The notes beneath the pieces are model-generated. The model saw only the letters and a program-made list of their open reading frames with translations. It was not told the DNA's origin and did no database searches. Below, one piece after another: positions 29,467 through 53,879 of a stretch of 64,000 nt of DNA (position 1 is its first letter; every line of letters starts with the position of its first letter). Origin of the DNA: Bacteroides sp. (GTDB taxonomy: Bacteria > Bacteroidota > Bacteroidia > Bacteroidales > Bacteroidaceae); NCBI GenBank assembly GCA_023665805.1, contig JAMPDJ010000010.1, positions 17,453 to 81,452 on the forward strand, read 5' to 3'. Made by a program: the position numbers and the translations under genes.

Positions 29467-29472
29467 AAATCT

Positions 29473-31895: not shown

Positions 31896-31898
31896 GGT

Positions 31899-33844: not shown

Positions 33845-33856
33845 GCCGATATACAA

Positions 33857-36340: not shown

Positions 36341-36969
36341 TTTTGGCTATCAGTTGTGCTTGATAAATGTGGTAAACACCATTTGTTTAAGATAAATCGG
36401 GAAGAATCCTTGTGCGAAATAACTTTTGCCGGACAACCGGCTACTGTATTTCCAGGCGGAACAGTCTTCACAACTACGGCACCAGCCCCTATTGCTGTAT
36501 TGTTGCCTATAACTATATCTTCTACAATGCAGACATTTGGTCCAATATAAACATTGTCTCCTATGATAGCCGCTTTGCCCTCGTTACTGCCTATGGTAGA
36601 AAATTGGCTTAAATTCACGTTGTTGCCAATTATAGCAGTCGGATTTACGATAATGCCAAAACGATGTCCTAAATATAATCCGTACCCTATCTTCGTGGAA
36701 GATTCAATAGATAATCCGTATTTTTTATCATAACGCGCAAGCATCCTTTTACAGAATGAATGAAATAATCCCTTTTTATAAGATGAGAATCTAAGCCAAA
36801 AGGAAAAGCCTGTATGTACATTTCTGCACCCCCAGATTATTCTTAATAAAGAAGGATTTATTCCTGAATAACGAAACCAATCACTTTTCACTAATGTTAA
36901 GCAATCCGCATAACTTTGAGGAATCGGTATATGAAAACCACCGCCTTCATTTATGAATTCGTATTTCAT
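36337..36969 (-). CDS. hexapeptide-repeat (LbH) O-acetyltransferase, serine-acetyltransferase-like
   Basis: Hexapeptide repeats IGDNVYIGPNVCIVEDIVIGNNTAIGAGAVVVKTVPPGNTVAGCPAKV. Confidence 0.8.
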   Translation of the reverse strand: MKYEFINEGGGFHIPIPQSYADCLTLVKSDWFRYSGINPSLLRIIWGCRNVHTGFSFWLRFSSYKKGLFHSFCKRMLARYDKKYGLSIESSTKIGYGLYLGHRFGIIVNPTAIIGNNVNLSQFSTIGSNEGKAAIIGDNVYIGPNVCIVEDIVIGNNTAIGAGAVVVKTVPPGNTVAGCPAKVISHKDSSRFILNKWCLPHLSSTTDSQK

Positions 36970-36973
36970 ATCT

Positions 36974-37963
36974 TCAGATTTTTCTGATATAACGATGAAG
37001 GTTTCTCATCGTATCATATAAATGAAAGAGGCGGGCCTTTAATAAATATGACAAGACTATCTCTTTATAAGAGGAAATATGTAATTCATTTAAATAAGGG
37101 GCTAAATCAATGGACTGTATGATTTCGATACGTTTCCGTTTACATATCTTGTTATGATACAAAGAATTCAAGACTCTTCTTGCATAGTAACCCAAAATCC
37201 AATTGAGTTTATGTAGCGCAATCGGATTCTTTATACCTTTAAGTATGCACATATCTCGTATTACATCAGAAATCTTATGATATCCTAACAATTCAGAATC
37301 CAAACTGTTCACTCTTTTTGTCAATGAGTTATTTACATCAAAACTATAGAAATAATCTGTATCCTCTGAGAAGTATATATATCTGCACGCTTGGATGTAA
37401 GAAAATAGGAAAACTGCATCTTCACCTATATGCATATCTTCAATGAAATTCAGATTGAGTCTTTTTACTATTTCCATACGATACAATTTGCTCCATGGTG
37501 AAGTGTAACCATGAAGTTCATTTTCAATTAAAGCCAGTTCTATCTCATCCGAAGAAATCCTTTTTGAGGGGAAACTAATGCTTTTGAACTGTCCATTGCT
37601 ATAATATATAGTTGCATAAGAGAATACTAAATCTACATCATTTGTAACATGATCTATCAAATGTTCTAAATAGGATGGTGACACCCAATCATCGCTATCT
37701 ATAAATGTGACCCAAGTTCCTTTGGCATGTCGCAACCCTAAATTTCTTGCTGAGCTTACTCCCCCATTCATTTTGTAAAAGGCCGTTACACGAGAATCCT
37801 TTCGAGCATATCTATTACAGATGTCTTGAGATGCATCAGTACTTCCATCATTGATAAGTATGACTTCGAAGTCACTACAAGTTTGTGCAAGAACACTGTC
37901 AATACAGCGTTCTAAGTCTTTAGCGTTATTGTAAATAGGAATAATAACGGATATAAATGGCAT
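36974..37963 (-). CDS. glycosyltransferase family 2
   Basis: ATG at 37963 gives MPFISVIIPIYNNAKDLERCIDSVLAQT...LINDGSTDAS, with IDSDDW. The track start at 38071 is TTG. Confidence 0.88.
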   Translation of the reverse strand: MPFISVIIPIYNNAKDLERCIDSVLAQTCSDFEVILINDGSTDASQDICNRYARKDSRVTAFYKMNGGVSSARNLGLRHAKGTWVTFIDSDDWVSPSYLEHLIDHVTNDVDLVFSYATIYYSNGQFKSISFPSKRISSDEIELALIENELHGYTSPWSKLYRMEIVKRLNLNFIEDMHIGEDAVFLFSYIQACRYIYFSEDTDYFYSFDVNNSLTKRVNSLDSELLGYHKISDVIRDMCILKGIKNPIALHKLNWILGYYARRVLNSLYHNKICKRKRIEIIQSIDLAPYLNELHISSYKEIVLSYLLKARLFHLYDTMRNLHRYIRKI

Positions 37964-38071
37964 ATTCAATGTTATCTTATAAAGAATATACTGGAGGCGT
38001 CTGGTGAAAAAAACTAATCTTACTGACAGCAATGCAGATAGATATACCCGAATTGTGGCAGCACACTTCAA

Positions 38072-39055
38072 TCAGTTTATGATATTGAAAACATATTTAG
38101 CAATGCCAGTTATAGATAACCGTTCATCATAGAATGATCTTATTGTTTGGGGAGTAAAGTTATTAAGTCTTTCTTGGTCGGAAAGAATGGACGGTAGTTC
38201 TTTCCATGAATTAATGGTTATGCAAGGCGCATCTTTATAACATTCCACATTAGGCAGAGGTTCGGTAATCACAATGCATCCTTGGCGAAGCGCCTCGTAA
38301 AACCGGAAACACTCCGTAGAATGGAACCCGCAAGGAGATAAAACGATGCGTGAGTTTTGAAGGAACCTTGCGTAAGTTTTATAATCGGCTCCTTGGTTGA
38401 AACCGCTATAAAACTGTATATGTGTATTTTTATCTGAAAGGTCAAATGTTTTTCCCTCAAACCAATGTCGGAATAGCCGTACTCCCCCCCTTATGTTATA
38501 GCGAAGAAGGAAGTTGACTAATACCTCTTTCATCGTCTTCTTTTCCTTCAAAGAGTAAAAGAGCGGAAATCTATTTTTGTTTAGGTTTCCACAAAAATAC
38601 ACGTCGTGTTTTCTTTTGTTAAATGGCAGCACTTCTAATTCCGGAACATCATCTATTGTTAGCAATGGAAAATGATATAAACCTTTTCTATAAACGTTGA
38701 CGCCATTTATGCGTTGTATAGAATTTTCATTTCTAAGATGTACTTTAAATACCCAATTAAACCTTTGGAAAACGATATCGGAAGGAATACATCCTTCTTC
38801 ATCACCAATCCAGAATAAAACATTCTTTTTATCTTTTGCATAATTGGATGTTTCCTTTATCAGCACATGCTCATCTTCGATAAATCCCCAAAACACATAA
38901 TACTCAAAGTTGAGATCATTGTTCATTAGATTGTTTAGAGTAATACAAAACAATCTCAATGATTTTATTTCCAGTAATTTATCAAATTGATAAGACGGAG
39001 ATACTATTATAGTTACATTGTCTATGTCTTTAAATTGATGAACCATATAAGACAT
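38072..39055 (-). CDS. putative glycosyltransferase (exostosin/GT47-like C-terminal pattern)
   Basis: 327 aa with ...SRIVLSPCGFHSTECFRFYEALRQGCIVITEP, which resembles the exostosin-family motif. The assignment is weak. Confidence 0.45.
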   Translation of the reverse strand: MSYMVHQFKDIDNVTIIVSPSYQFDKLLEIKSLRLFCITLNNLMNNDLNFEYYVFWGFIEDEHVLIKETSNYAKDKKNVLFWIGDEEGCIPSDIVFQRFNWVFKVHLRNENSIQRINGVNVYRKGLYHFPLLTIDDVPELEVLPFNKRKHDVYFCGNLNKNRFPLFYSLKEKKTMKEVLVNFLLRYNIRGGVRLFRHWFEGKTFDLSDKNTHIQFYSGFNQGADYKTYARFLQNSRIVLSPCGFHSTECFRFYEALRQGCIVITEPLPNVECYKDAPCITINSWKELPSILSDQERLNNFTPQTIRSFYDERLSITGIAKYVFNIIN

Positions 39056-39074
39056 TATTTATATATAAGCTGAT

Positions 39075-39959
39075 TCAAACATTAATGAACTTCTTCCAAA
39101 AACTGTCATATTCCCATTTCATAAAGGCATGGCAACCGAATGGCAACTCTCCTGTCATGTCATACAAATAAGATGGATGCACTTCAAAAGCGAACAAAGC
39201 CGCCTCCTTGCAATTCGGAGTGGAAACCTCATCTATGATATTGGAATGACAAGCATATACGCTGAATATAAAATCTTCATTACATGCATTAGAACGCAAG
39301 AAATACCGAAGCGTATTACGATATCCCAACCCTCTAAAAATTGATTTAGCAAAGGCTCTGGCAATAACTATTATCTTTGAATCATACCTATACCGCTCAA
39401 GCTTACTATATAAATGCAGCAAATAACTCCATTTTAGAAATGGAAGGTATGGATTACTCCTTAATACTTTCAAGCAGTGGGTGACTTTTCGTAAGGAAAA
39501 ACCTCCATTCCCCCCCCCATCAAAATCTTTCGAGTGAACGACCTCACGGTTATCTTGCTCATAAATGTAAAAAGTAGGAGGTCCAATATAATCGTAGCCC
39601 TTGTCACACCAATATTGCAACTTATCAGAAAACACCCAAGCGTCTAACTGACATATCAGCATATAGTCATATTTCAGAAAACGCTCATAGAAGTCTGTGG
39701 CTAAACATAAACGGTTATATCCTTCAACAGACGAAAAATAATTCTTGTCAAAATACTCTATATGAAAGTTCTTGCCTATTTCAGCAGAAACTTTCTCATA
39801 GCAAGACAAATCTAATCCGCTATAAGTTATCAGACATATGTCATAATGGCTTAACACCGTAAGCGTCTGGCGAAAAGAGGCCAATTCGTACAACACGGGT
39901 GCTGATTGATACACTGGAATCACGACAACACTCTTTGTTGAGTTTTTATTTTTACCCAT
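39075..39959 (-). CDS. DUF5672-like putative glycosyltransferase
   Basis: 294 aa. The GGGNGGFSLRKV motif is recalled as characteristic of DUF5672. The gene contains a G9 tract. Confidence 0.55.
   Translation of the reverse strand: MGKNKNSTKSVVVIPVYQSAPVLYELASFRQTLTVLSHYDICLITYSGLDLSCYEKVSAEIGKNFHIEYFDKNYFSSVEGYNRLCLATDFYERFLKYDYMLICQLDAWVFSDKLQYWCDKGYDYIGPPTFYIYEQDNREVVHSKDFDGGGNGGFSLRKVTHCLKVLRSNPYLPFLKWSYLLHLYSKLERYRYDSKIIVIARAFAKSIFRGLGYRNTLRYFLRSNACNEDFIFSVYACHSNIIDEVSTPNCKEAALFAFEVHPSYLYDMTGELPFGCHAFMKWEYDSFWKKFINV
39510..39518 (-). repeat. G9 homopolymer inside the DUF5672-like coding sequence
   Basis: Plus strand ccccccccc encodes GGG in ...DFDGGGNGG.... The frame is intact in this assembly. 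Confidence 0.9.
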
Positions 39960-39962
39960 AGT

Positions 39963-40634
39963 CTACATACTTTGGTGTGGCAGTTTCTTAATGATTTTTG
40001 CCGGAACTCCAGCAACTACAGAATAGGAAGGTATATCATGTGTAACCACAGAGTTAGCGGCAACAATTACCCCATCTCCAATTCTAACATTAGCCATAAT
40101 CGAGACCTTGTCGCCTAACCATACGTTTTTACCGATAATCACAGTTCCTTTTGAAACAACCCTACGTTGAGTTGGTGATATATCGTTCTCTACTCCGCTG
40201 GAATCTCCATGAGAATTGTCAGTAATCAAAACATAACGCCCGGTAAGCAATCCGTCACCGATTTCAATCCTGTTGGTCGCAGTAAAATGATTATATTCAC
40301 CTATATGACAATGATTTCCCACTACCAATTTCGGACCATTCTTGGAAATTCCATAGTTATTCCCTACTTCCATTAGTGTCCCTTTATGAATCACAGTCCC
40401 GTTGCCCAGCGAAATGTATTCCGGGTGATAAAAATAAGCCCCATTAAATATTGCCCCTTCCCTTAATGTCCGGTACAATTTTCCATTCCAATAAGCAGTG
40501 TTATAGCTCGTTGCGAATTCCGAATAGTACACCGACAATCTGTATCGCAAGGGATGCATAACGCAACCCATTACCCACCCTATGCAATGGATGACTTTCA
40601 GTATTAAACAGTTTATTATTTTAAGCGCACCCAT
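39963..40634 (-). CDS. hexapeptide-repeat (LbH) acetyltransferase
   Basis: GKNVWLGDKVSIMANVRIGDGVIVAANSVVTHDIPSYSVVAGVPAKII. Confidence 0.8.
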   Translation of the reverse strand: MGALKIINCLILKVIHCIGWVMGCVMHPLRYRLSVYYSEFATSYNTAYWNGKLYRTLREGAIFNGAYFYHPEYISLGNGTVIHKGTLMEVGNNYGISKNGPKLVVGNHCHIGEYNHFTATNRIEIGDGLLTGRYVLITDNSHGDSSGVENDISPTQRRVVSKGTVIIGKNVWLGDKVSIMANVRIGDGVIVAANSVVTHDIPSYSVVAGVPAKIIKKLPHQSM

Positions 40635-40731
40635 ATATTAGATTGAATCATCCGACAAACAGATAAAAAGCACGCAACACCCAATACATATATCTTTACC
40701 ATAAGAACTCATCAAAACAGCCATCTCAACA

Positions 40732-41634
40732 TTACTGTAATACCCCATCATTTATAAACCGTTGGTACTTTTGTTGCAGATGAAACGGTGCGCCCCTGAG
40801 CAAATCCCGTTGTATTTGCTCCAAAGACACCTGAATGAGAGCCTGCTCCTTGTGGATGTCAAATAGTTCTTGATATGATTTCGGGTATTCTAATAATTCC
40901 GTTATATTTCCGAATCCATCATAGTATTCTATGCCAACAGAACTAAAGTAGTCTTTGAATTTAAAACCATCAGTATCAATATCTCCATTTTTAATCCATA
41001 ATGCAGGAATCCCATAGGCATGCGCTACAATAATTCCATGTAATGAAGTTGATAGAATTTTTCTGCAACTACAAATTTGACCTACCACCTTTTCTACGTC
41101 ATCTGTTCGTAAATCAATAATCAGATACTTATCGCCATAAATTCTGATAAAATAGTCTACTTCACGATGATGCGGTATTATTCCCAAAGGAATGTCTTTG
41201 TTTATTTCTGGTTTTATCCATAATGGCAGCAACAATGCAGGGTCACCAAGTGGAACATCGTTTACGGCAATACCTTGCTTTAATATCTTCAGTTTACTTT
41301 CGTTGCCACGCAAAGCATAAATGTTATCCTTATGTATATGCACAGGATCCGAATAATTCATAAAACCGCTACCCCAGATTTTACATGTGCCAGTGCTATT
41401 TCTTAATATAGACCCTATGGACAATAAAACACCTCTATTGGGTTTTTGTAAATCTTTCCATCTCGAAAAACGTCCAAGAAATACAATACTAAATAATTTC
41501 CTGAACAATTGCCGTGTACTAAAGGGTTTAACCCAGCATGTCGGAAGGCCTGAAAGTTCCTCTACCAACTTAGGAGCCAAGCTATCTCCAAAGTTAAGGC
41601 CTTCCCAATAATACATTCTAATGCTTTGCTTCAT
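40732..41634 (-). CDS. polysaccharide pyruvyl transferase family protein
   Basis: 300 aa with NFGDSLAPKLVEELSG near the N-terminus and STSLHGIIVAHAYGIPALWI near the C-terminus. Confidence 0.78.
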   Translation of the reverse strand: MKQSIRMYYWEGLNFGDSLAPKLVEELSGLPTCWVKPFSTRQLFRKLFSIVFLGRFSRWKDLQKPNRGVLLSIGSILRNSTGTCKIWGSGFMNYSDPVHIHKDNIYALRGNESKLKILKQGIAVNDVPLGDPALLLPLWIKPEINKDIPLGIIPHHREVDYFIRIYGDKYLIIDLRTDDVEKVVGQICSCRKILSTSLHGIIVAHAYGIPALWIKNGDIDTDGFKFKDYFSSVGIEYYDGFGNITELLEYPKSYQELFDIHKEQALIQVSLEQIQRDLLRGAPFHLQQKYQRFINDGVLQ

Positions 41635-41650
41635 GATAGAATGCTATTAC

Positions 41651-42235
41651 TTATTGGGTTCTTATACAACGTTTTGAATCATCCAATTCCGTTCTTCCTT
41701 GGGCCTTTTGCTCCAAATATATCTTGTTTTCTGATTTTAGTTGCAGATACTTGCTTTCGTCCCTGTATTTTATAAGTTTTGCCGGACAACCTCCCACAAC
41801 TGCCATTGCTGGCACATCTTTAGTGACACATGAGTTGGCCGCAATAATGGCCCCCTCTCCAATTGTAACACCTGCCATTAGAGAAACATCCGCTCCAATC
41901 CAAACATTTTCTCCTATTGTTACATCCTTCACCATGTACCTATCGTCATAAGGAAGCATATCTCCTTCCCACCTATGATTAGAAGTGTGAACTTTGACTC
42001 TTGGACCCAAAATGGAACCTTTACCGATAGTAAGATTTCCACGTAGCTCAAACGATGAACCTGGCCCTATGTATATAGGCGGGGTGCATTTTAGCCTGTT
42101 GGGATTAAACACAAAGAAGGGTTTGTGGATTTCTACCCCTTCTGATTCAAGTCTGTTCTTAATTTTATTTTGATGATATTCTAATCGTAGAAAATCAATG
42201 AACGACTTGGACATATCAATGAGTATCTTCAACAT
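41651..42235 (-). CDS. hexapeptide-repeat (LbH) acetyltransferase
   Basis: [48 protein letters not shown]. Confidence 0.85.
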
Positions 42236-43779
42236 TGCTTAATTGTGTTTCTGAATAATTTTGACTTAATTACCGTTCTCAAATACAAACGTTCCGATTG
42301 GGAGAGCCCTATCCAATATGCAAATATGCAAATGTTTATTGCAGAAGAAACAAAGACGAATAAAAAACGAAGGAAGCCATAAGGCATGAATTTATAACAC
42401 GCAAATGGAATACAGTAAGATAAAATAGCAACAAGTAATACATTACAGCATACCCCTACAATGTAATTAACAAACGAAATATTGATTGTACGTGAAACTA
42501 TTAGCAATCTCAAGAAAAAACAAATAATTGAAATTATCAACGTTACATATAATACACTTTCGGGAGGATATTTCATGATAAGAAGAATATAAGATAAAGG
42601 AAGGTTTAATAATGACATTCCTCCGACTGTCAATTGATAATACTTGATATTGCCAGATGCAGATTGTGCAGAAGTAATGGTTTTAGATAAGACCTCACAC
42701 ATAGATGTCAGAAGCACTATACGTACAAAATTAACAGAATGTTCTGGATATTGTTTCAGCCATAATGTAAGTACATAATCGGTTTCAATGAATATAGGCA
42801 TTGCCAAGAAAAGTAATATGTAAAAAGAGAAACGCGTTCCCCGTTCCAGTAGCGAGGTTAAAAATAGCTTGTCACCTTTAGCATAAGATATTGTGATTTG
42901 TGGTGATAAAGATACCATGAAATTATTCACAAAAGAGTTGACCACAACATTGACAGTATTCGCTATGCCTTTGGCGGCATTTAACGTTGCTCCATAAAAA
43001 AGATTAAGTAAGATATTTACGCCTTGATCTCTCAGTACAACAGATGTACTACCTATAAATCCCCAACTGGCAAATGAACCTATTCCCTTGAAAAATTGCT
43101 TATCAAAGGTAAAATGTAACTGACACTCTTGAAAATGCGTCTTACAATAATATAGATAAATGCTCTGAATCAAAATGCCCACCAAAACAAGTAAGGTTGA
43201 ATATATTATGAGGTTATCCCATACAAAAGGTATATATGCAATGAACAATACTATCAAAAGCCTTAGTATCGTATCCAATATGCCTATATAGGCGAATATG
43301 TTCATCCGTTCATACGCAATTATGATAGCATTGAATGATACACTTAACAAGCCCAGCATAAAAGATAAAATAGAAGCTTGAAAGACCCAATTGGCAGCAT
43401 GCAAACGTTCAGGAGGAATAGTCATATGTGTATTCAAGAACCAAACTCCAATCGTTTCTGATAGCACAAGCACCAATAAGGCCAACATTACATGTATAAA
43501 AAAAGAAGTAGAAAAGACTCTCTTTAGTCGTTCTATATTGCCTTCTCCCAGTTCGAAAGTAAAAAAACGTACAACAGCTCCAGACAATGCTTCTGATATC
43601 AACGCAAACATCGCAACGAAGCCTCCCACCACATTGTATATGCCATAATCCTCTACGCCAAGGGTGTTCAGCACTACACGTGACGTATATAGCGACACAA
43701 GCATGCTGAACAGCATACGCGTATAAAGCATTAACGTATTCTTTGCAATACGTTTGGTGTTTTCTGATTGTGTTGACAT
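42229..43779 (-). CDS. wzx: oligosaccharide flippase (Wzx, polysaccharide biosynthesis protein family)
   Basis: 516 aa, polytopic, with the N-terminus [44 protein letters not shown] typical of Wzx. Confidence 0.88.
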
Positions 43780-43989
43780 GATTTATTACAGGTCAATGGC
43801 GTGAAAGAGGAACGCTTACCCGTTTGACTAAAATGCTCTTTTCAACATGTCCACTTAAATGGCAAGACATGTTGGCACAAGCGGTCAAGTGTAGTGACGT
43901 GCTTTTAGGAATTGCTTCAAATTGCGAAGAATTATACCGACTTCAATGGATATGCAGGAAGTAAGGTCTTGTGTGCCAATCAACAGTTG

Positions 43990-44916
43990 TTATTTTTGGG
44001 AGAGGTTGGTTATTTCATCCACGGACAATCCTGTCAATTCGGATACAGTGCTGATGTCCATGCCTTTGGCAAGCATAGTACGGGCTATTTCTGCGCGTCC
44101 TTTTTCAATTCCCTGCTCAATTCCTTGTTCAATTCCTTGTTCAATTCCTTGCTTGATTCCCTTTTCAATACCTTTCTCCAGTCCTCGTATCTCTGCTGTC
44201 TGCATCACGCTGAACCAATCGCGATAGTTCTTCAAACTCTCCTCATATTCGTATCTTTCCCTCCGGTCGTACTTGGCTATTTCCGCCACTTCAAACAAGT
44301 GTTCGAAAATCTTGTCCTGCAATACCTTTGGACGTTCCAGCAGCGAAGCCAGATTGCGGATGGCAAACATCCACTTGTCAAACAGGGTCTCAAGTTCCGG
44401 TTCCGTTTTTGTGAACTTGGGCATTTCCAGATAGATGAATGTCAGCTTGTCATAAAACACTGATTTCGTGTCGATGTCCATCAACTTGATTTCGTGGTAG
44501 AAATCATTGCTCTGTTCCATGCCGGGGAGACAGAAATTCAGTATGCCGATGGTGTAGACTCCTTTCAGCTCATAGTTCCATATGCCACGGGGGGCTTGTT
44601 CGCGTATGGCGAAAGTGGAATAGTATATGCTACGGTCTTTGAAGAATTGCTGTTCTCCTTTCTGCATTTCCACTACGAACATTTCTCCGCGGTTGTTCTT
44701 GCAATAGACATCGAACACGGCACGTCGGTCGTATTCCTGAGTGCCCAGATGCTCTGCATTCAAGTATGTGATGTCGGTTATCTCCTCCCTGCCATGCAGC
44801 AAGGCGTTCAGGAAGCTGATGAGCAAATCCTTGTTCACTTCGGTTCCGAACAATTTCTTGAACGCAAAGTCGGTATAAAAGTTTATATATCTGTCTATCA
44901 AGCCCTGCGAACACAT
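43990..44916 (-). CDS. Rpn-family recombination-promoting nuclease / PD-(D/E)XK putative transposase
   Basis: The track start at 44973 is TTG. ATG at 44916 gives [24 protein letters not shown]..., with nuclease core [17 protein letters not shown] and a C-terminal (GIEQ)n repeat. Confidence 0.85.
44104..44175 (-). repeat. in-frame 12-bp tandem repeat x6 encoding [25 protein letters not shown]
   Basis: The units ttcaattccctg / ctcaattccttg / ttcaattccttg / ttcaattccttg / cttgattccctt / ttcaataccttt were read directly. Confidence 0.9.
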
Positions 44917-44958
44917 ATTTATAACCTCCTTTTCCTGTTTTTCTTTTTTTAAGTGCAA

Positions 44959-44984
44959 ACGATATTTATTCAAATGCCCGTTTT
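44959..44984 (-). promoter_or_regulatory. 26-bp upstream motif shared with the AAA/PDDEXK gene (promoter-like)
   Basis: acgatatttattcaaatgcccgtttt matches acgatatttattcaaatacccgtctt at 46605-46630 at 24 of 26 positions. Confidence 0.45.
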
Positions 44985-45006
44985 ACAAACGGAGTCCCTC
45001 TCACCG

Positions 45007-46572
45007 TTACTTTACCTGTTGATTATCGATTATCCATTTCTCTATGTTCCGTGTCTCGGAAGAGAAATTCATGCCGATGCGGAACAGCGTTGTGCCATCT
45101 GCGCTGAATGGGAGCGTATAGTCTTTGTCAGAAATCTGTCGGAGTGCATCCTCTGCAGTCCCGTCAAGTTTGAACTCCATGACGTACGTGTAGTCTTGGC
45201 TCTGTAGCACCATGTCGATGCGTCCACGGCTCGTGTGGTATTCTGCACGGACATGCGCCCCAAGCAGCTTGAATATGATGAACAGCACATTTTGGTAATG
45301 GTTCTCCAGGTCTCTCTCCAACTCGTAGGGAGTGTCTGCGAAGAAGCTTTTCAAACGGGTAAGGAAAGCTGCGGGCTTGCCCGTTTCTATTTCGTTGACG
45401 AATTTCTGTATGTGGAAAGGAGCCTCTACGGAATCCAGCGAAGTATAATAAGGAAGCAGGAAACGGAAGAACCCGTCTTCCACCTCGGCGTTCGGAAATC
45501 CCAGATGATATGTTCGGAAACGTGGGTCATAGTCCTTTATGGTCAGATAGCCGCTTTGGTATATCACCGGTATGGGGTTGGCGGATGCAACTTCAACGCT
45601 GTTGAGTATGTCCTCGGTGGCGTACTCGTCTGCCATGCGCTCCAGGCTGTAGCCCTGCAACTGCAGTAGCTGCACGAGGTATGTGGGCGTTCCCGTCTCG
45701 AACCAATAGCTTCCGAAAGCGTTGGCGTCGAAAGCGTTGAGCACACTGAACGGGTTGTATATTCCGGATTGCGCTGCGGTGAAGTGGTATCCGTCGTAAA
45801 GCCTCGTCATTTCGTCCGTCACCTCTTCCGTCGACATGTGAAGTTCTTGTGCCATGCGCTTCATGTGTTCCCCGAAGTCCCGTTGAAGTTCCGCACCCGT
45901 GATACCGCAAATTTCGTGGTAGTCCTTGCGCATGGATATGTCCTTGAGGTTGTTGAGGTCGCTGAAGACGCTGACCTTTCCGAACTTTGTAACTCCGGTC
46001 AGCATGGCGAACTTGATATATTGGTCGCCGGACTTAAGTGCTCCGTAAAAAGCCTTCAGCGTGTTGCGGTATGCCTCCTGCAAGGACTCGTTGCCAATGG
46101 TCTGAAGCATAGGCTTGTCATATTCGTCGATTAGGATTACCACACGTTTGCCTGTCTTGATGAAAGCTTGCTCTATGACATATGAAAAACGCTCCTCCGG
46201 AACACGGTCTTTCTTGGCATCACCATAGAGTGCTTCCCATTTTTCAAGATACTCGTTCAGTATTCCGGAAAGGGATTCTATGTCCTTGTAGTTGCGGGTA
46301 TTCAGATCCATATGCAGGACAGGATACCTTTCCCACTTCTGCTCCAGATTCGCTATTGCCAGTCCCTCGAACAAGTCTTTCCGCCCGTCGAAATAGGAAT
46401 GCAGAGTAGAGAGGAGCAGGCTTTTTCCGAAACGTCGGGGGCGTGACAGGAAATAGTAGCTGCCTGTAGAGACAAGTCTGTATACCCAAGCTGTCTTGTC
46501 TACGTAAAGATAATTCCCCTCGCGTATCTTCTCAAAATTCTGTATGCCTATAGGCAAGTTCTGGAGTTCCAT
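45007..46572 (-). CDS. AAA-ATPase_like + PD-(D/E)XK (PDDEXK_9) fusion protein
   Basis: 521 aa. MELQNLPIGIQNFEKIREGNYLYVDKTAWVYRL...FLSRPRRFGKSLLLSTL is the hallmark N-terminus of the predicted AAA-ATPase family. The C-terminal part AEYHTSRGRIDMVLQSQDYTYVMEFKL is nuclease-like. Confidence 0.88.
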   Translation of the reverse strand: MELQNLPIGIQNFEKIREGNYLYVDKTAWVYRLVSTGSYYFLSRPRRFGKSLLLSTLHSYFDGRKDLFEGLAIANLEQKWERYPVLHMDLNTRNYKDIESLSGILNEYLEKWEALYGDAKKDRVPEERFSYVIEQAFIKTGKRVVILIDEYDKPMLQTIGNESLQEAYRNTLKAFYGALKSGDQYIKFAMLTGVTKFGKVSVFSDLNNLKDISMRKDYHEICGITGAELQRDFGEHMKRMAQELHMSTEEVTDEMTRLYDGYHFTAAQSGIYNPFSVLNAFDANAFGSYWFETGTPTYLVQLLQLQGYSLERMADEYATEDILNSVEVASANPIPVIYQSGYLTIKDYDPRFRTYHLGFPNAEVEDGFFRFLLPYYTSLDSVEAPFHIQKFVNEIETGKPAAFLTRLKSFFADTPYELERDLENHYQNVLFIIFKLLGAHVRAEYHTSRGRIDMVLQSQDYTYVMEFKLDGTAEDALRQISDKDYTLPFSADGTTLFRIGMNFSSETRNIEKWIIDNQQVK

Positions 46573-46597
46573 GATTATCTGCGCCTGTTTGCCGTAG

Positions 46598-46630
46598 CAA
46601 AGATACGATATTTATTCAAATACCCGTCTT
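46598..46630 (-). promoter_or_regulatory. shared upstream motif plus -7 box TATCTTTG for the AAA/PDDEXK gene
   Basis: Plus strand caaagata (46598-46605) is TATCTTTG on the minus strand, 26 nt from the ATG at 46572. It is contiguous with the 26-bp motif shared with the Rpn gene. Confidence 0.45.
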
Positions 46631-46679
46631 TGGCAAGAAACTTTTTCCAGAGCGATGTCCATATCATGGTGCGGACGGT

Positions 46680-47732
46680 TTACGGCTCTATGTGGAGAAT
46701 GGGATAACGGATGGCAAGCGATTCGCGTTGTGATTCCATAATCTCCTTCAAGTCAACGGAGATGTCCTTGTTGTCCATTGCAGACTCCAAGATTCTGTCC
46801 GCCTCCCGGCAAAGTGCCATTATGTCGTCTGTGTTGCCGATGTCGGCATTGTCGTCTGCAGCCTGGAAGTGATTTCCGGTTTCTTCAAGGATAAATAGGG
46901 CGATTTCCACTGCTTCGTCAAAATTCTTTCCTGCCATCTCAAGCCTCATCCTGGCAATCCATTGTCGGAGGCTTTCAGCCATAGCCATTACATCCAGCTG
47001 ATTTTGTGGAATGAAGAAACACTTGTCTATCTCCTGCTGTAGCGGCGTTAATAAGCTATCAGGTCTTTTTTCGATTCTCTTTAGTTGCTCCCTGCGTAGA
47101 CGGACATATTCGTCCATGTTCTCAAAGCTTTCTTTGTGTATTCCGCCTATTGCCACTGTCATTCCTTCGAGTGTTGTTACCAGGCATTTGTCTCTGGAAA
47201 TGCGTATGCGGTATCCTTCAAGACCGGTGAGGACTCCGCTGGTAATTTTTACCAGGGTGTTTCCCTCGGCATAATAATCGATGGAGTGTGGCATGAAACG
47301 GATGCGTGTGGGATTCACTTTCGACACTTGCATGAAAGGCTGCATGATCCTGTCTGGTATGGCTGCTATTGCTCCTTTGCAGCAATCTTTCGCTAAATAC
47401 AGGCCTGGAAACGTTTCTTTCAAGACTCCCTGAATGTCGTTGCCATCTCCTTGTACGAAAATAAGTCCGGAAATGGTCGGCTTTTCACTTTTCTTGATAC
47501 GTTTGCTTTCCCGTTTGTACACAACGCTTCTGTGCACAAATACGGGATAATGTTTCTTTTGTAATATGCCGCTTACCGTATCCACCTTTCTGTGGTGGAC
47601 AAAGAGGTAACACCAAGATGTTATTTTGTTTGCTTCTGTACACTTTTCTCCCTCCAGACCAAAAAACATTTCTGCTCCGTTCTTGGTTTCACCCCCAGGG
47701 TTAGTTTGAGTTTCTGGACTATACAGTGGCAT
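46680..47732 (-). CDS. UpxY-like NusG-family transcription antiterminator with an atypical ~150-aa C-terminal extension
   Basis: NGN-like region SWCYLFVHHRKV...KPTISGLIFVQG and KOW-like region GNTLVKITSGVLTGLEGYRIRISRDKCLVTTLEGMTVA, followed by about 150 aa of acidic, probably helical sequence. ATG at 47732; an alternative ATG at 47669 (MFFGLEGEKC) is at least as plausible. Confidence 0.72.
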   Translation of the reverse strand: MPLYSPETQTNPGGETKNGAEMFFGLEGEKCTEANKITSWCYLFVHHRKVDTVSGILQKKHYPVFVHRSVVYKRESKRIKKSEKPTISGLIFVQGDGNDIQGVLKETFPGLYLAKDCCKGAIAAIPDRIMQPFMQVSKVNPTRIRFMPHSIDYYAEGNTLVKITSGVLTGLEGYRIRISRDKCLVTTLEGMTVAIGGIHKESFENMDEYVRLRREQLKRIEKRPDSLLTPLQQEIDKCFFIPQNQLDVMAMAESLRQWIARMRLEMAGKNFDEAVEIALFILEETGNHFQAADDNADIGNTDDIMALCREADRILESAMDNKDISVDLKEIMESQRESLAIRYPILHIEP

Positions 47733-47806
47733 CGTCGCTCAAATCTAATATATGTTTCCGGTCTGCATTGCTACATTGTAGCGGTTGCTTAATCAGTAGG
47801 GAATTA

Positions 47807-47816
47807 CCCCCCCCCC
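47807..47816. repeat. C10 (G10 on the coding strand) homopolymer in the CPS leader
   Basis: gaattaCCCCCCCCCCgatt, located between the left inverted repeat and the upxY-like start. Confidence 0.9.
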
Positions 47817-47904
47817 GATTTTATGCATAAGTACATGCTTTTCAGTGAGTTAATAGTGTATCTGCGTGTCTGGAATATGTTTTGCAATGTGTTAAATTCC
47901 TCTT

Positions 47905-47928
47905 TCTCTCGGTAAGAGAAGTATGATT
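47905..47928. repeat. left 24-bp inverted repeat (IRL) of the candidate invertible promoter
   Basis: tctctcggtaagagaagtatgatt is the exact reverse complement of 48108-48131. Confidence 0.9.
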
Positions 47929-48093
47929 CTGTGGACACTATTGTTAAATTATTGATAGCCAGACACGGATTATGTAAAATGAATTGACGGGCCAAAGAAT
48001 TAAGTGTCCAATAAGTTTATGCATATTGATAAATTTATTTTCTTTGTTAAGAAATACCATACGCATTTTCTTGCGTATTTCTTAGATTTAGGC

Positions 48094-48101
48094 TAACTTT
48101 G
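48094..48101 (+). promoter_or_regulatory. -7 box TAACTTTG inside the invertible core, currently pointing away from the CPS operon
   Basis: This is the only TAnnTTTG match on either strand of 47929-48107 (scanned by eye). Confidence 0.5.
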
Positions 48102-48107
48102 TGGCCA

Positions 48108-48131
48108 AATCATACTTCTCTTACCGAGAGA
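48108..48131. repeat. right 24-bp inverted repeat (IRR)
   Basis: aatcatacttctcttaccgagaga. An 11-bp core, tcttaccgaga, is repeated directly at 48138-48148. Confidence 0.9.
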
Positions 48132-48367
48132 TATTTTTCTTACCGAGAAAATGATGTTCCGCTTTTCTTGGATTTGAGGATCCCGTATTCATTTTTCCGT
48201 TTGTGACATAGGTTTTCTTCGGCTTCAACTCGGGATAGCTTGCATAATTTAATACCCATGTGTTGTAAACTAACGGAAGTACACGTTAATTTACAACACC
48301 GATTGTATTATTATGTAAGTGTTCGTTGATATAGCGACACAAGCCTCTTTGCTGGCTTGCGGTCTTG

Positions 48368-49573
48368 TCAGAGTGCTTTAATGATAATGCTGTTGGCTTT
48401 GTCCACTACAGATGTATCAAGCGAGGCAAGGTAGATTCTTGTCGTTGTTTCCGAGTCGTGTCCCATGGCTTCGCTGATGGTACTGATTGGGATGTTCTTG
48501 CTTTTTGCGATGCTGGCCCATCCGTGTCTTGCGACGTATGTTGTCAAAGGGGATGTCAGCCCCAACAGGCTGCCTATTTTCTTCAGGTTGCAGTTTACCC
48601 TGTGTTCCGCACTCTTGTATTGTTTCCTCTCGTCTTTCGACACATCTTTTATAATAGGCAGCAGATATGGCGTTCCTGCGGTGTCGTATTTGTCAATGAT
48701 TGCCTGCATTGGTTTCTCCCATTTGATGAACAATTGCTGGTTGGTCTTTTTTCGCCTATACGACAGGACTCCGTTTTGCAAGTCTTTCTTTTTCAGATAA
48801 GCGATGTCTATGAATGACATTCCGCGTGTATAGAAGCTGAACATGAAAATGTCTCTTGCAAAATCCATGTAACGTGTCAGTTGCAAGTCCCGGATCTGTC
48901 TGATGCAATTTAACGAAACTGCGCGTTTCACGGTTTTGTCTATGCCGGTATATACGTGCTTGAACGGGTTCTGTTGCTCCGTCAGTTCCTGGTCCACTGC
49001 GCGGTTGTATATGGCGCGCAGGTTGCGCATGTAATACGATATGCTGTTGGGACAGATGCCATGTTCTTTCAGCCTGGTCTCGTATGTGGCCATCAGGCTG
49101 CCGTTCACATTGTCAAGCAGGATGTCCCCTTGCCCTGACCGGAAACGCTCAAAACTATTCAACGTAGTGCTGTATGTCTCGGCTGTCCGCCTTTTGCCGG
49201 TTTGATTCAGTTCCCGGACTATGCGCCGTCCGAAAGAAAGGAGAAAACGCTGGTCGGCAGGGGAAGAATACAGTTTCACTATCATGTCGGCCGTATATGC
49301 CTTTCCTGTGTTTTCCAGCCGCTGTATGATTTCTATGATGCAGGAGACATTCTCTGCCACACGGTTTCTCAAGGCAGTCAGGTAATGCAGCCTGTTTTCT
49401 TCGCTATCGGCTGCCGTGACAATCCGGGCTGCCGCAGCGTCCCATTCCGCGGGATGAATCTTGTATCCGGCATCTATCTGCCTGACGACACGCTTGTGAA
49501 TTACTTGGTAATAAAGCGCCCCTTCCGCTCCGTCAATGGAAGATGGGCGAAATTTAACTTTTACACTTGCCAT
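48368..49573 (-). CDS. tyrosine site-specific recombinase (phage-integrase family, Bacteroides Arm-binding/SAM-like N-terminus)
   Basis: 401 aa reading MASVKVKFRPSS.... Catalytic-region motifs TTYVARHGWASIA and AMGHDSETTTRIYL (HxxR ... Y). Confidence 0.9.
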   Translation of the reverse strand: MASVKVKFRPSSIDGAEGALYYQVIHKRVVRQIDAGYKIHPAEWDAAAARIVTAADSEENRLHYLTALRNRVAENVSCIIEIIQRLENTGKAYTADMIVKLYSSPADQRFLLSFGRRIVRELNQTGKRRTAETYSTTLNSFERFRSGQGDILLDNVNGSLMATYETRLKEHGICPNSISYYMRNLRAIYNRAVDQELTEQQNPFKHVYTGIDKTVKRAVSLNCIRQIRDLQLTRYMDFARDIFMFSFYTRGMSFIDIAYLKKKDLQNGVLSYRRKKTNQQLFIKWEKPMQAIIDKYDTAGTPYLLPIIKDVSKDERKQYKSAEHRVNCNLKKIGSLLGLTSPLTTYVARHGWASIAKSKNIPISTISEAMGHDSETTTRIYLASLDTSVVDKANSIIIKAL

Positions 49574-49689
49574 AATGATTTTTGATGGTTAGGTACAATC
49601 TCAACTAAAGAATCGAATAGTTACTGGATTTTGAGATTGTCGGCCATCTTCAATGGTCCGTATAAAAGCATGGACAAGGAAAAAAGAGG

Positions 49690-51555
49690 CTACTTCTTCG
49701 CCTGTGGTAGGCAGCTATAACTCTTTTGCTGCATCACCATAAGGTTGCGTAGGCGTGTGGGATTTGGTTCCGGAGCATCGTTGAGCACGTATCCCGATTG
49801 CAGATCCGTCATTGTGGTTCCGGTAGAGTCTGTGAACAGGCTGCCTGCCGGGCAGTTGCAATAGGCAAAGGGATATGTATAGTTCCTGCTGAAGACGTTG
49901 CGGCTCCATGGGAAGTCTTGGTTGTGCGGTATGCCCATTTGGCTGAGGATGGTGGCCGCAATGTCGTTTTGGGCAATGATGGTGGATGTGTCATACCGTT
50001 TGGAGACGGCTCCTCCCACGAAAAAGAGTGGCATGTGGAAAAATTCCGGATTGTCCAGGGTGAGGCCGTACGTGTGGCCGTGGTCGGCAAAAAGCACCAC
50101 CAGAAGGTTGTCCCATAATGGTGTCCGGCTGAGACTGTCGAGGAACTGGCCCACGCAATGGTCGGTGTATGCAAAGGCATTGTGCACCTTGTTCTCCAGA
50201 CGGTCGTAGGGCACATCCCATGGTTCGTGACTGCTTATTGTCTGGCATCCCCAATAGTATGGCCTGTCGGGACCGTTTTCCTGGCGTGTGCGTTGCATCA
50301 GGCCCAGCATCCTGTTCATGGCTATGCTGTCGTTGGCTCCCCATACGTCGCGTTCCTCGGGACTGACGTCTATGTCTTCGATGTCCCAAACGCGGAAGCC
50401 TATGGCTTCCAGATACTTGCGCTTGTTCATGTGATGGGCGTTCCCTCCGTACATATAGTCGGCGGTATAGCCGTGCGAGCGCAAGGTCTTGGCCAGTCCG
50501 GGCAACAATGGCAGGCACGTGTCGTTCATCATCAGGGAAGCGGTGGGGTAGGACACATAGCCGGAGAGGACGCTGACCGTACCGCGGTCGGTACGGAAGC
50601 TGGTGGCCCAGGCATTGGTGAAGTTCACTCCGCGCCGCATCCATTGGCACAGTTCCGGCGTTACGTCCGGCACGCCGCCAAGGCTTTCGATGAACGGCGC
50701 TCCCATGCTTTCCAGTTGTATCGTCAGGATGTCCGGACGGCGCGTGTTCAGTATGGTGTCGGTGATGTCTTCGGTATCGGAGGGGAAAATCTCGGCAAAG
50801 ATGCTGTCGCACCGGGTCTGCGGCATATTAGGGAACTGCTTGTCATAGTCATGGGCATAAAGCAGCATGGAACGCGCCATGTGTCCCACTGGATTGACCG
50901 CGGCATGGTTGAGCACGATCTTGTCGCTATGGAAGGCACTGTACTCGTTGGCCGGTCTGCCGTTGATGCCCAGCATCATTGCTCCGAGCAATAGGCCTGT
51001 GAGCAGGTATAGCCTGCGTTCCCTGCGTAGCGAGTCCCGTTTGCGCGGATGCCTTCCTCCCTGACGTTCCGAGGTTATCCGGCGCGGTGTGATTGCCACT
51101 GTCAGGAAAGCCAGCAACAGCGATGACGCCAGGACGCTGCCTATTCGCGTGACTATGTAATGTGTCGAAGCACTTGCACCTGCATTGCCCGGCGATGACA
51201 TGTAGCTGAAGACCGATGCGTCGAGCAGCAGTTTCCAGTTCTCGTACATGATGATTGTGCCTCCGGTGACGCACCCCGCCAGGAAGGTAGCCACGACCAG
51301 ATATGTGCCTGCTATTTTGCGCAGGGGTATGCCCGGCCACACGGTGACGGACATCAGCGTCAATATCCACACCGGCATCACTGTCATGGCCACGGTGCTG
51401 GCATCCAAGGGCAGGCCGTGCCACAGGGCGCGCATCATCTCCCCTGCGGTGAAAGTCGTCATGTCTTGGTTGTAGAGCAAAAATCCGACTTTCCCTATGA
51501 GGGTGGCACATAGCAGCAAGGCTGTCAATGCCAGTATGTAGCGTGTCTGTTTCAC
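49690..51555 (-). CDS. LTA-synthase / sulfatase-family membrane protein (phosphoglycerol- or phosphoethanolamine-transferase-like)
   Basis: 621 aa with N-terminal TM segments and an alkaline-phosphatase-superfamily domain (LESMG..., NAWATSFRTDRGTVS). The start codon at 51555 is GTG. Confidence 0.82.
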   Translation of the reverse strand: MKQTRYILALTALLLCATLIGKVGFLLYNQDMTTFTAGEMMRALWHGLPLDASTVAMTVMPVWILTLMSVTVWPGIPLRKIAGTYLVVATFLAGCVTGGTIIMYENWKLLLDASVFSYMSSPGNAGASASTHYIVTRIGSVLASSLLLAFLTVAITPRRITSERQGGRHPRKRDSLRRERRLYLLTGLLLGAMMLGINGRPANEYSAFHSDKIVLNHAAVNPVGHMARSMLLYAHDYDKQFPNMPQTRCDSIFAEIFPSDTEDITDTILNTRRPDILTIQLESMGAPFIESLGGVPDVTPELCQWMRRGVNFTNAWATSFRTDRGTVSVLSGYVSYPTASLMMNDTCLPLLPGLAKTLRSHGYTADYMYGGNAHHMNKRKYLEAIGFRVWDIEDIDVSPEERDVWGANDSIAMNRMLGLMQRTRQENGPDRPYYWGCQTISSHEPWDVPYDRLENKVHNAFAYTDHCVGQFLDSLSRTPLWDNLLVVLFADHGHTYGLTLDNPEFFHMPLFFVGGAVSKRYDTSTIIAQNDIAATILSQMGIPHNQDFPWSRNVFSRNYTYPFAYCNCPAGSLFTDSTGTTMTDLQSGYVLNDAPEPNPTRLRNLMVMQQKSYSCLPQAKK

Positions 51556-52079: not shown

Positions 52080-53879
52080 TTACATCCTTTCGGGAACCTC
52101 TATGCCCAGCAGTGACATGCCGTTCTTTATCACCTGCGCCACGGCCGCGCTAAGTGCCAGACGCACAATCCGCTTGGCGGAATCCTCCTCGCGCAGCACG
52201 CTGAAATCGTGGTAGAACTGGTTGTACTCCTTCACCAATTCGTAGCAATACGTGGCGATGGAGGCGGGGTTGTAGTCGGCACCGGCCTGGCGCACTGCGG
52301 CGGCGAAGCCGTGTAGATGTTGGATGAGGCTGATTTCCTTGGTGCTCAGTCCGGCATCGGCCGGCAAGGTCTCCGGTATTGTTATGCCCTGTTCCCCGGC
52401 CTTGCGAAGGATGCTGCGTATGCGGGCGTAGGTGTATTGTATGAAAGGCCCGGTGTTGCCGTTGAAGTCGATGCTCTCCTCGGGATTGAAGAGCATGTTC
52501 TTGCGCGCGTCCACCTTGAGGATGAAGTATTTGAGGGCACCCATGCCCACTATGCGGGCTATTTCGGCAGTTTCCTCCTCGGTGATGCCCTCCAGTTTCT
52601 TTATCTTGTCCTCGGACATGGCGCGGGCGTCCTGTATCATTGTGGCCACCAGGTCGTCGGCATCCACTACGGTACCCTCGCGGGACTTCATCTTGCCGTT
52701 GGGCAGTTCCACCATGCCGTAGCTGAAGTGCACGAGGTCCTTGCCCCACTTGAAGCCCAGTTTGTCCAGCAGGATGGAGAGCACCTGGAAGTGATAGTTC
52801 TGTTCGTTGCCCACCACGTAAATCATCTTGTCTATTGGGAAATCCTGGAAACGGAGTTTGGCTGTGCCGATGTCCTGGGTCATGTAGACCGAGGTGCCGT
52901 CGGAGCGCAGCAACAGTTTCTCGTCCAATCCCTCTTTGGTGAGGTCGGCCCATACCGAACCGTCCTCCCTACGGTAGAAGAAGCCCTTGGCCAGGCCTTC
53001 CTCCACTTTCTCCTTGCCCTCCAGGTAAGTCTCGCTCTCGTAGTATATTTTGTCGAAGCTTACACCCAGGGCCTTGTATGTCTCGTCGAAACCGGCGTAC
53101 ACCCAGTCGTTCATGGTTTTCCACAGGGAACGTACCTCGGGATCGTTCTGTTCCCAGCGCACCAGCATGTCGTGGGCCTCCTTGATGAGGGGAGCCTCCT
53201 GCTTGGCGGTCTCCTCGTCCATGCCCTGCGCCACGAGTTCCTTGACCTGCTGACGATAGTGCGTGTCGAAGGCCACATAATAGTCGCCGATCAGGTGGTC
53301 GCCTTTCTTGCCGCTTGTTTCCGGGGTCTGTCCGTTGCCGTACTTCAGCCATGCCAGCATGCTCTTGCAGATGTGTATGCCGCGGTCGTTCACGATGTTG
53401 GTCTTCACCACGCGGTTGCCGTTGGCCTCCATGATTTGCGCCAAGGCCCATCCGAGTAGGTTGTTGCGCACGTGTCCCAGGTGCAGGGGCTTGTTGGTGT
53501 TGGGGCTGGAGTATTCTATCATCACCAGCGGTGATGTCTCGGTGACCGGGCGGAAGCCGAACTTGTGGTCGTGGCTGATTTCTTCCAGCAACTGTATCCA
53601 TTGTGCGCTGGCGACGGACAGGTTCAGGAAGCCCTTCACCACGTTGAACTTGCTGATAAGGTCGGGGCACTTCTCCGTCAGGTACTCGCCAAGGTCCTGT
53701 GCCGTGGCCTCGGGGGACTTCTTGCTGGTACGCAACAACGGGAATACAACGAGGGTCAGTTCGCCCTCGAACTCGGGACGTGTCTCCTGCAACTGTATCA
53801 TCTTTTCGGGCACTTCGGCACCGTAGATGTCCTTTATGCCGCTGATGGCGGCGGCTATTATCTTTTCCTGTATGTTCAT
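52080..53879 (-). CDS. argS: arginine--tRNA ligase
   Basis: 599 aa with the HIGH-type motif SSPNTNKPLHLGHVRNNLLG and a C-terminal DALR anticodon-binding region. Confidence 0.97.
   Translation of the reverse strand: MNIQEKIIAAAISGIKDIYGAEVPEKMIQLQETRPEFEGELTLVVFPLLRTSKKSPEATAQDLGEYLTEKCPDLISKFNVVKGFLNLSVASAQWIQLLEEISHDHKFGFRPVTETSPLVMIEYSSPNTNKPLHLGHVRNNLLGWALAQIMEANGNRVVKTNIVNDRGIHICKSMLAWLKYGNGQTPETSGKKGDHLIGDYYVAFDTHYRQQVKELVAQGMDEETAKQEAPLIKEAHDMLVRWEQNDPEVRSLWKTMNDWVYAGFDETYKALGVSFDKIYYESETYLEGKEKVEEGLAKGFFYRREDGSVWADLTKEGLDEKLLLRSDGTSVYMTQDIGTAKLRFQDFPIDKMIYVVGNEQNYHFQVLSILLDKLGFKWGKDLVHFSYGMVELPNGKMKSREGTVVDADDLVATMIQDARAMSEDKIKKLEGITEEETAEIARIVGMGALKYFILKVDARKNMLFNPEESIDFNGNTGPFIQYTYARIRSILRKAGEQGITIPETLPADAGLSTKEISLIQHLHGFAAAVRQAGADYNPASIATYCYELVKEYNQFYHDFSVLREEDSAKRIVRLALSAAVAQVIKNGMSLLGIEVPERM

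Follow-up and report, generated by a model that had tools for sequence, protein, structure and literature searches.

A 64,000-nucleotide stretch of Bacteroides sp. DNA (assembly GCA_023665805.1, contig JAMPDJ010000010.1, positions 17,453 to 81,452; the whole stretch is referred to as the window) contains a 179-bp segment that is enclosed by perfect 24-nt inverted repeats (IRs) next to a gene for a tyrosine recombinase, and the same segment is found reverse-complemented between the same flanks in other public assemblies. We consider it about 90% probable that the locus is a phase-variation switch for a capsular or extracellular polysaccharide operon of a gut-type Bacteroidales. As such it is an ordinary member of a well-described Bacteroidales class made up of a tyrosine recombinase, an invertible promoter, upxY and a capsular polysaccharide (CPS) operon. 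The features on which the argument depends, in window positions, are:

47905–47928, plus strand: recombinase-distal (upxY-side) IR arm, through which the ON-state promoter would fire
47929–48107, no strand: invertible core of 179 bp, reverse-complemented between the same flanks in three related assemblies (L091, L093 and L103)
48108–48131, minus strand: recombinase-proximal IR arm, a core-type recombination site whose TTCTCT/AGAGAA dyad encloses an asymmetric centre, CGGTA
48066–48073, plus strand: TTTTCTTG, a candidate −33-like element that precedes the −7 box by 20 nt
48094–48101, plus strand: Bacteroides-type −7 box TAACTTTG, 6 nt inside the right arm and predicted to fire toward the 3′ end of the recombinase gene
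48368–49573, minus strand: tyrosine site-specific recombinase of 401 residues, candidate local invertase (PF17293, PF13102 and PF00589)
47733–47904, minus strand: leader of 172 nt from the switch to the upxY-like start codon, including the TAGATTTG box
46680–47732, minus strand: UpxY/NusG-like regulator of 350 residues, first gene of the putatively switched operon (NF033644 and fold match)
28363–46572, minus strand: downstream operon, nuclease-family genes and then polysaccharide-synthesis genes

Inversion of the 179-bp segment

The original prediction, made from the letters of the window alone, described perfect 24-bp IRs around a 179-bp core, and both a repeat search and shuffled sequences bear this out. 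The arms at 47905–47928 (TCTCTCGGTAAGAGAAGTATGATT) and 48108–48131 are 24 nt long, are 100% complementary and enclose 179 nt, as is expected of the short intergenic IR-bounded segments of roughly 150–300 bp that typify the class. A 20-mer from the arm, searched for with up to three mismatches, occurs three times in the 64-kb window, that is at the two arms and at a partial copy at 48131–48150, and the IR is found nowhere else in it. No match to the 20-mer was obtained in 100 dinucleotide-preserving shuffles, so that the IR is non-random.

Orientation was compared in nine informative near-identical loci from nine samples, with recombinases at least 99% identical that are members of the same 90% cluster; the comparison is one between samples, and heterogeneity within a sample is implied only by contig breaks. 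Six of the nine assemblies hold the core as it is in the window (OFF), these being the window itself, L090 (SRR34802109), L092 (SRR29323628), L095 (GCA_023667205.1), L097 (SRR14863664) and L102 (ERR13946609), and in three (ON) the core is exactly reverse-complemented while the flanks are unchanged, namely L091 (SRR29323616), L093 (SRR29323605) and L103 (SRR32733013), the numbers being counts of assemblies and not frequencies. The contig of L091 spans the whole switch; its flanks are collinear with the window and 99.3–100% identical to it, and the reverse complement of its core is identical to the core of L090 at 179 of 179 positions. The inversion about the IRs that had been proposed for the window is therefore seen in the cores of these three assemblies. 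At the proximal junction the two isomers read ...GAAGTATGATT|TGGCCACAAAG (OFF) and ...GAAGTATGATT|CCGTGGACAC (ON), and these exact junction sequences are usable for determining ON/OFF ratios in metagenomes.

The exact recombinase and UpxY-like proteins of the window were found in one public contig only (GCA_023666565.1 JAMPBS010000006.1, 'MAG: Bacteroides sp.'). The contig of L094 ends in a Nextera adapter and its evidence on orientation was discarded. In relatives with 88% identity (L085–L088) the contigs end 207–254 nt past the stop codon, with different intergenic DNA in which no site is visible, and the P0254 contigs, which have a disrupted recombinase and end inside the gene, gave no orientation data.

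The core contains a single match to the −7 consensus TAnnTTTG, TAACTTTG, when both strands are checked, in agreement with what had been read by eye, and its direction is opposite to that of the minus-strand operon. The window was thought to have been captured in the OFF state, and this too holds, as the lone box faces the 3′ end of the recombinase gene, and in the ON isomers TAACTTTG is aimed at the upxY-like gene. Reflection about the IRs (96036 − x) puts the box at 47942–47935 on the minus strand, 203 nt upstream of the ATG at 47732, where it had been expected. From its fit to the consensus and its conservation we infer that TAACTTTG is a promoter, lying inside the segment and able to face the operon. 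TTTTCTTG lines up with a conserved TTT block in the box-anchored alignment of the family described below and would be its −33 element. A scan for sigma-70 promoters and terminators, which is ill-suited to Bacteroides promoters, gave counts equal to the shuffled expectation and was set aside.

It would seem likely that a tyrosine recombinase, most likely the product of 48368–49573, binds both 24-bp sites through their TTCTCT...AGAGAA dyads with the asymmetric centre, pairs them and flips the 179-bp core by conservative strand exchange. With the only promoter of the core (−33-like TTTTCTTG and −7 TAACTTTG) 6 nt from the arm, transcription would start in or next to the arm, in the ON state near 47925–47930 on the minus strand. 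In the state seen in the window, OFF, it would be directed at the 3′ end of the recombinase gene; after inversion it would run toward the 172-nt leader, the gene for the NusG-like, putative UpxY-type antiterminator and about 20 polysaccharide-synthesis genes (ON).

The recombinase and the family recombination site

A tyrosine recombinase had been recognised next to the repeats, and the domain scan agrees: the reading frame at 48368–49573, upstream of the switch by 236 nt and on the operon strand, contains Arm-DNA-bind_5 (PF17293), Phage_int_SAM_5 (PF13102) and an intact catalytic domain, Phage_integrase (PF00589). Inspection of its motifs gives R250 (TRGMS), R349 (ARHGW), H372 (GHDSE) and Y381 (TRIY) as candidate catalytic residues, and the protein is presumably the invertase of the switch. 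Homologues are abundant, with at least 7999 at E ≤ 1e-50 among 8000 candidates scored, and are named 'site-specific integrase' by their sources. In L098–L101, representing at least 24 ENA metaSPAdes contigs, the orthologous recombinase reads as far as about codon 293 and then runs into unrelated DNA (GGAAAAGGCGCGTGTGTTTGACCCCTTGGGG...), where the contig stops. Probably an insertion sequence or repeat has inserted at this point and removed the catalytic region of R349, H372 and Y381.

More distant relatives were collected from species-representative genomes. The scan gave 205 loci, the best being 70% identical, and the 80 that were kept are 59–70% identical and come from Bacteroides, Phocaeicola, Parabacteroides, Prevotella/Xylanibacter, Alistipes, Muribaculaceae and others. 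Most of the kept loci have an IR pair directly downstream of the recombinase around a core of about 140–310 nt, and 61 promoter-bearing switches were counted among the 80, just 3′ of the recombinase. The IRs of the window, which had not been recognised in the original prediction, prove to be copies of a large family site, TTCTCTYnnTAAGAGAAGTAT in its short form, which stands beside homologous recombinases. The consensus from 123 arms, tAnTTCTCTynnTAAGAGAAgTAt, is a near-palindrome with conserved half-sites and 2–4 central positions that vary from locus to locus. We infer from this pattern that crossover takes place in the centre, which would set the direction of each site and prevent recombination between the different switches of a genome.

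When the 61 switches are aligned on the box, they have in common TAnnTTTG(CA), which is preceded by an A/T-rich block and, at a distance of about 25 nt, by a TTT block, and is followed 3–17 nt on by an arm. The box faces the recombinase (OFF) in 48 of the 61 and the operon (ON) in the other 13. Moreover, cores from different loci can be more alike inverted than direct: 85% against 63% identity for L071 and L075, 81% against 56% for L031 and L056, and 86% against 58% for L034 and L056. Judged by these alignments, orthologous switches of different species are inversion isomers. Contigs end within 1 kb downstream of the recombinase at 24 of the 80 loci, several of them inside a site, as compared with 5 of the 80 within 1 kb upstream. 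A definition of the family site as TTCTCT/AGAGAAGTAT half-sites with a locus-specific centre and a promoter 3–17 nt from one arm could serve in the annotation of switches, and could explain the recurrent contig breaks 3′ of 'integrase' genes in Bacteroidales assemblies.

The first downstream open reading frame (ORF) is UpxY-like at 16 of 48 related loci and DUF3575 at 23 of 48. We take DUF3575 to be of fimbrial type, in which case recombinases of this clade would serve polysaccharide as well as fimbrial operons. Two switches stand in series at L009, L013, L027, L065 and L070.

The operon, alternative explanations and known switches

An AlphaFold model of the UpxY-like protein (mean predicted local distance difference test score 77) has an NGN/KOW fold that matches NusG and RfaH, with E-values down to 8.5e-07, and there are 1517 homologues, mostly of 320–370 residues among the matches listed. 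A sequence search of the PDB with the protein gave no match. The operon behind it includes a flippase, hexapeptide acetyltransferases, a pyruvyl transferase, an acyltransferase and several GT2/GT1 glycosyltransferases, with about 20 synthesis genes in the operon; the domain scan reached 28363 and ORFs run on to about 24 kb. In the strain of L096 the AAA-ATPase_like/PDDEXK_9 gene, one of the two nuclease-family genes that precede the synthesis genes in the window, is missing and different synthesis genes lie downstream, so the cargo varies behind a conserved switch. A 308-residue ORF with no Pfam match comes next in L096, and this ORF is also called in the contig of the window.

Several points weigh against reading the locus as a polysaccharide switch worked by its neighbouring recombinase. 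The UpxY-like protein scores 74 bits against NF033644, over residues 40–199, which is below the curated cut-off of 100, and its NGN and KOW domains (residues ~40–200) are followed by an extra C-terminal helical domain of about 140–150 residues (~205–345). This domain is confidently predicted, and no PDB fold match was reported and no Pfam or NCBIfam match found for it. No model for UpxZ was matched, nor is there an upxZ gene after the UpxY-like gene. The isomers all come from a few Logan and NCBI assemblies, and the exact 24-mer of the IR had no match in JGI metagenome contigs, in which the lineage is rare. Since each sample is represented by one assembly path, and assemblies built from k-mers may join the junctions of different isomers, the ON:OFF counts cannot be taken as frequencies. 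Finally, a P. vulgatus CPS promoter inverts even though its local recombinase is defective, a pseudogene (PMC13114119), and two Tsr proteins are redundant on distant promoters (PMC12940148).

The last two observations would also fit inversion of the segment by some enzyme other than the adjacent recombinase, either a global invertase or a tyrosine recombinase paralogue encoded elsewhere in the genome, and the interruption of the orthologous gene in at least 24 ENA contigs means that the lineage tolerates its loss. We nevertheless regard a distant enzyme as unlikely. The site motif and the recombinase clade are found together at a fixed distance at more than 60 loci in several families, the site is unrelated to the consensus ARACGTWCGT of the global invertase Mpi (PMC8375218), and the gene in the window is intact with catalytic-type motifs. 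It could alternatively be argued that transcription of the operon depends mainly on the fixed TAGATTTG box at 47747–47740 on the minus strand, with the switch only boosting or modulating expression or having another target, such as the recombinase gene, into which the OFF-state promoter would read antisense with a conceivable regulatory effect. The box, already pointed out in the original prediction, is indeed present, fits TAnnTTTG and lies 7 nt before the ATG. It is not kept, however, in the homologous leaders of L061 (TTAGCTTAAG) and L067 (TTAGAGAGAG), though the N-terminus of the protein (MPLY/MSLY) is, and because of this the match is probably fortuitous or belongs to some element of the leader, and the box is unlikely to be a promoter. 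A start at this box would, moreover, leave virtually no leader, and UpxY proteins act on ops/pause sites in the leader region (PMC11685472); the promoter that the family conserves at a fixed position is the box inside the switch. Control from the fixed box is, on these grounds, distinctly improbable.

That the repeats are instead terminal IRs bounding a small non-autonomous transposable element, or serve as attachment site for an integrating element that has the recombinase as its integrase, might be suggested by the arm-binding, SAM-like and catalytic domains of the recombinase, with its Pfam label of phage integrase and its NCBI name of 'site-specific integrase'. Such an idea is hardly credible given that the element is inverted in place between identical flanks, is neither absent from assemblies nor present at other positions, has no further copy of its IR in the window, and carries a promoter conserved at a fixed position across the family. 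The genes on either side (argS, the sulfatase-family gene and the polysaccharide operon) belong to the chromosome, and all assemblies show them collinear.

An invertible promoter worked by the adjacent recombinase is a familiar arrangement. The fimS element of Escherichia coli, inverted by FimB and FimE, is likewise a short invertible promoter with adjacent tyrosine recombinases that controls a surface structure. It differs in its 9-bp IRs, its length of 314 bp, its two recombinases with directional bias and its accessory sites for IHF and Lrp, and in having a sigma-70 promoter and recombinases of an unrelated lineage.

The closest counterparts are the Tsr-adjacent CPS promoters of B. thetaiotaomicron, Phocaeicola vulgatus and Parabacteroides distasonis. 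A tyrosine recombinase lies directly upstream of upxY in 5 of 9 CPS loci in P. vulgatus, 11 of 13 in P. distasonis and 4 of 8 in B. thetaiotaomicron, and inversions were seen in assemblies of those loci (Xu et al, 2007, PMC1892571). A local invertase followed by one or two invertible regions and then upxY has also been described (Yan et al, 2022, PMC8748976), and the arrangement is typical of gut Bacteroidales CPS loci, with inversion shown by PCR (PMC13114119). The gene order of the window, with its upxY-like gene in the place of upxY, is the one reported in these three papers, as the original prediction had supposed. Common to both are the recombinase, IR-flanked promoter, upxY-family or upxY-like gene and polysaccharide operon on one strand, the −7 box inside the switch, both orientations in sequence data and the insertion of unrelated nuclease/NTPase genes. 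The recombinase locus of P. vulgatus ATCC 8482 (L070), a 59%-identical relative, has the same site motif. The window differs in the organism, the locus-specific spacer CGGTA, the tandem proximal site and the leader poly-G tract, and in a first gene that encodes a 350-residue UpxY-like protein with an extra C-terminal helical domain, with no upxZ. The invertible promoters with a local invertase that control resistance genes (IP-ARG classes) and their glycan-locus ancestors (PMC8748976) also have an upstream local tyrosine invertase with upxY as the first downstream gene. Their IR motifs are similar across classes, and some have two adjacent invertible regions, as do L009, L013, L027, L065 and L070; the window, on the other hand, has one switch, not two, and the flanks that were examined hold no resistance gene and nothing that points to a conjugative element.

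Other Bacteroidales switches share less. The Mpi-dependent CPS promoters of B. fragilis and B. intestinalis (Krinos 2001 and Coyne 2003, cited in PMC8375218) are likewise invertible segments of about 180–190 bp that precede upxY; transcription starts in the proximal IR, and the CPS loci are phase-variable, most of them being OFF in most cells. Mpi is a global serine invertase with the IR ARACGTWCGT / GTTCGTTTAA, whereas the recombinase here is of the tyrosine type and adjacent to the switch and the site has the form TTCTCT..AGAGAAGTAT, and neither form of the Mpi motif is in the arm TCTCTCGGTAAGAGAAGTATGATT. The S-layer/lipoprotein switches of B. thetaiotaomicron and Tsr26 of B. fragilis (Taketani 2015, PMC4611039; Porter 2020, 10.1101/521070) share the upstream tyrosine recombinase and promoter-bearing segments, there with imperfect 17-nt palindromes on both sides, and the reference genome was assembled OFF. 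They differ in their site, GTTAC-N7-GTAAC, which is absent from the arms, in a segment of 256–301 bp and in a cargo of S-layer or OmpA-like lipoproteins. The EPS-Mfa1 IR motif TACTTNNNANGTAANNGAA of BF2766 (B. fragilis) and BVU2677-2684 (P. vulgatus) (PMC12940148) is not matched by the arm TACTTCTCTTACCGAGAGA, the two having only the start TACTT in common. The published motifs compared with the site are those of Mpi, the S-layer type and EPS-Mfa1, and a text search of papers gave no match to the site motif.

The current understanding of Bacteroidales phase variation is unchanged by this locus, which would be a phase-variable surface-polysaccharide locus of an uncultured Bacteroidales lineage. 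What remains of note is the variable tandem copy of the site and the poly-G tract.

Tandem site copies, the leader tract and neighbouring features

Further features of the region are:

48131–48150, minus strand: additional, incomplete copy of the recombination site (TTTCTCGGTAAGAAAAATAT), a tandem unit of 19 nt that points the same way as the proximal arm
47807–47816, minus strand: homopolymer, C10 on the plus strand and G10 on the sense strand, of variable length among assemblies
48260–48299, no strand: hairpin with a 16-bp stem between the recombinase stop codon and the switch, found by the repeat search
43990–46572, minus strand: two nuclease-family genes, AAA-ATPase_like/PDDEXK_9 (521 residues) and Rpn-family PDDEXK_2 (327 residues)
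49690–51555, minus strand: sulfatase-family gene
52080–53879, minus strand: argS

The 11-mer TCTTACCGAGA recurs at 48138–48148 within an 18-nt direct repeat, 48131–48148, that is 89% identical to 48112–48129, and is thus part of a tandem partial copy of the right arm. Read in the sense of the recombinase gene, the sequence of the proximal region is CATCAT-[TTTCTCGGTAAGAAAAATA]-[TCTCTCGGTAAGAGAAGTATGATT]-core, and TCTCGGTAAGAAAAATATC is the additional 19-nt unit. One such unit is present in the window, L090, L093, L094, L095, L097 and L102, two in L092 and none in L091 and L103. An accessory recombinase site had been proposed here, and the idea is borne out in part. The copy is indeed a point of rearrangement, with 0–2 units, but the contigs with no unit, L091 and L103, carry the ON core. 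All six OFF contigs have at least one extra unit, and the tendency of zero units to go with ON does not reach significance (Fisher p = 0.08, n = 9). L083 and L084, contigs of two separate runs, end at the identical base, right after the TCTCGGTAAGA common to all copies, which in k-mer assembly indicates real heterogeneity at that base. Extra or tandem site copies are common among the relatives (L002, L012, L020, L046, L058, L061, L072 and L076). The suggestion that they are always on the promoter-facing side gave a mixed result, with some 5–6 loci for and 3 against, and was dropped.

The third copy could be a decoy, an alternative crossover site or a product of slippage. In L091 and L103 a hybrid junction is seen, CATCATTT-TCTCGGTAAGA-GAAGTATGATT (in full CATCATTTTCTCGGTAAGAGAAGTATGATT), and the ON core follows it in both. 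Possibly this arose by recombination of the third copy with the distal arm, an event that could move the inner site and the promoter together. Such a crossover predicts a doubled distal site, with the distal junction GATATTTTTCTTACCGAGAGAAAGAGGAATTT; the doubled site is absent from L091, though a contig assembled at k=31 can mix isomers. It is also possible that the hybrid is a 19-nt deletion allele, and L092 shows that the number of units does change. The number of extra units (0–2) could set the ON/OFF bias. A switch with additional states and an additional layer of control, in which the tandem copy is a crossover partner, its copy number a bias and the poly-G tract a second layer, is a doubtful though conceivable extension of the two-state switch.

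The poly-G tract in the leader is G10 in the window, G11 in L090, G13 in L091 and L097 and G14 in L095, L096 and L102, and the contigs of L089, L096, L097 and L102 break at it. None of the other 80 related loci has a comparable tract. The variation may reflect slipped-strand mispairing or be a sequencing artefact at long G runs; a tract of G10–G14 could give slipped-strand control over read-through into the operon.

The hairpin at 48260–48299 is stable on both strands, with predicted folding energies of −24.8 kcal/mol (z −4.5) for the minus strand and −20.8 kcal/mol (z −3.2) for the plus strand. It may act as a two-way terminator or insulator, ending transcription of the recombinase gene and blocking antisense transcription from the OFF promoter; the terminator scan called no T-run terminator there. 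An Rfam scan of 46500–49700 found no known RNA element, giving a sub-threshold miRNA match only.

Elsewhere in the window there is a second perfect IR, with 25-nt arms (CATTTAACCCAAATCGGTCATTAGA) at 8249–8273 and 8433–8457 around 159 nt, in the intergenic region between an ORF at 6467–7732 (minus strand) and one at 8697–10745 (plus strand). No TAnnTTTG was seen within it on inspection by eye. It holds a nested perfect 21-nt hairpin (8304–8324 and 8348–8368), and could be an element resembling a miniature inverted-repeat transposable element (MITE) or another invertible segment.

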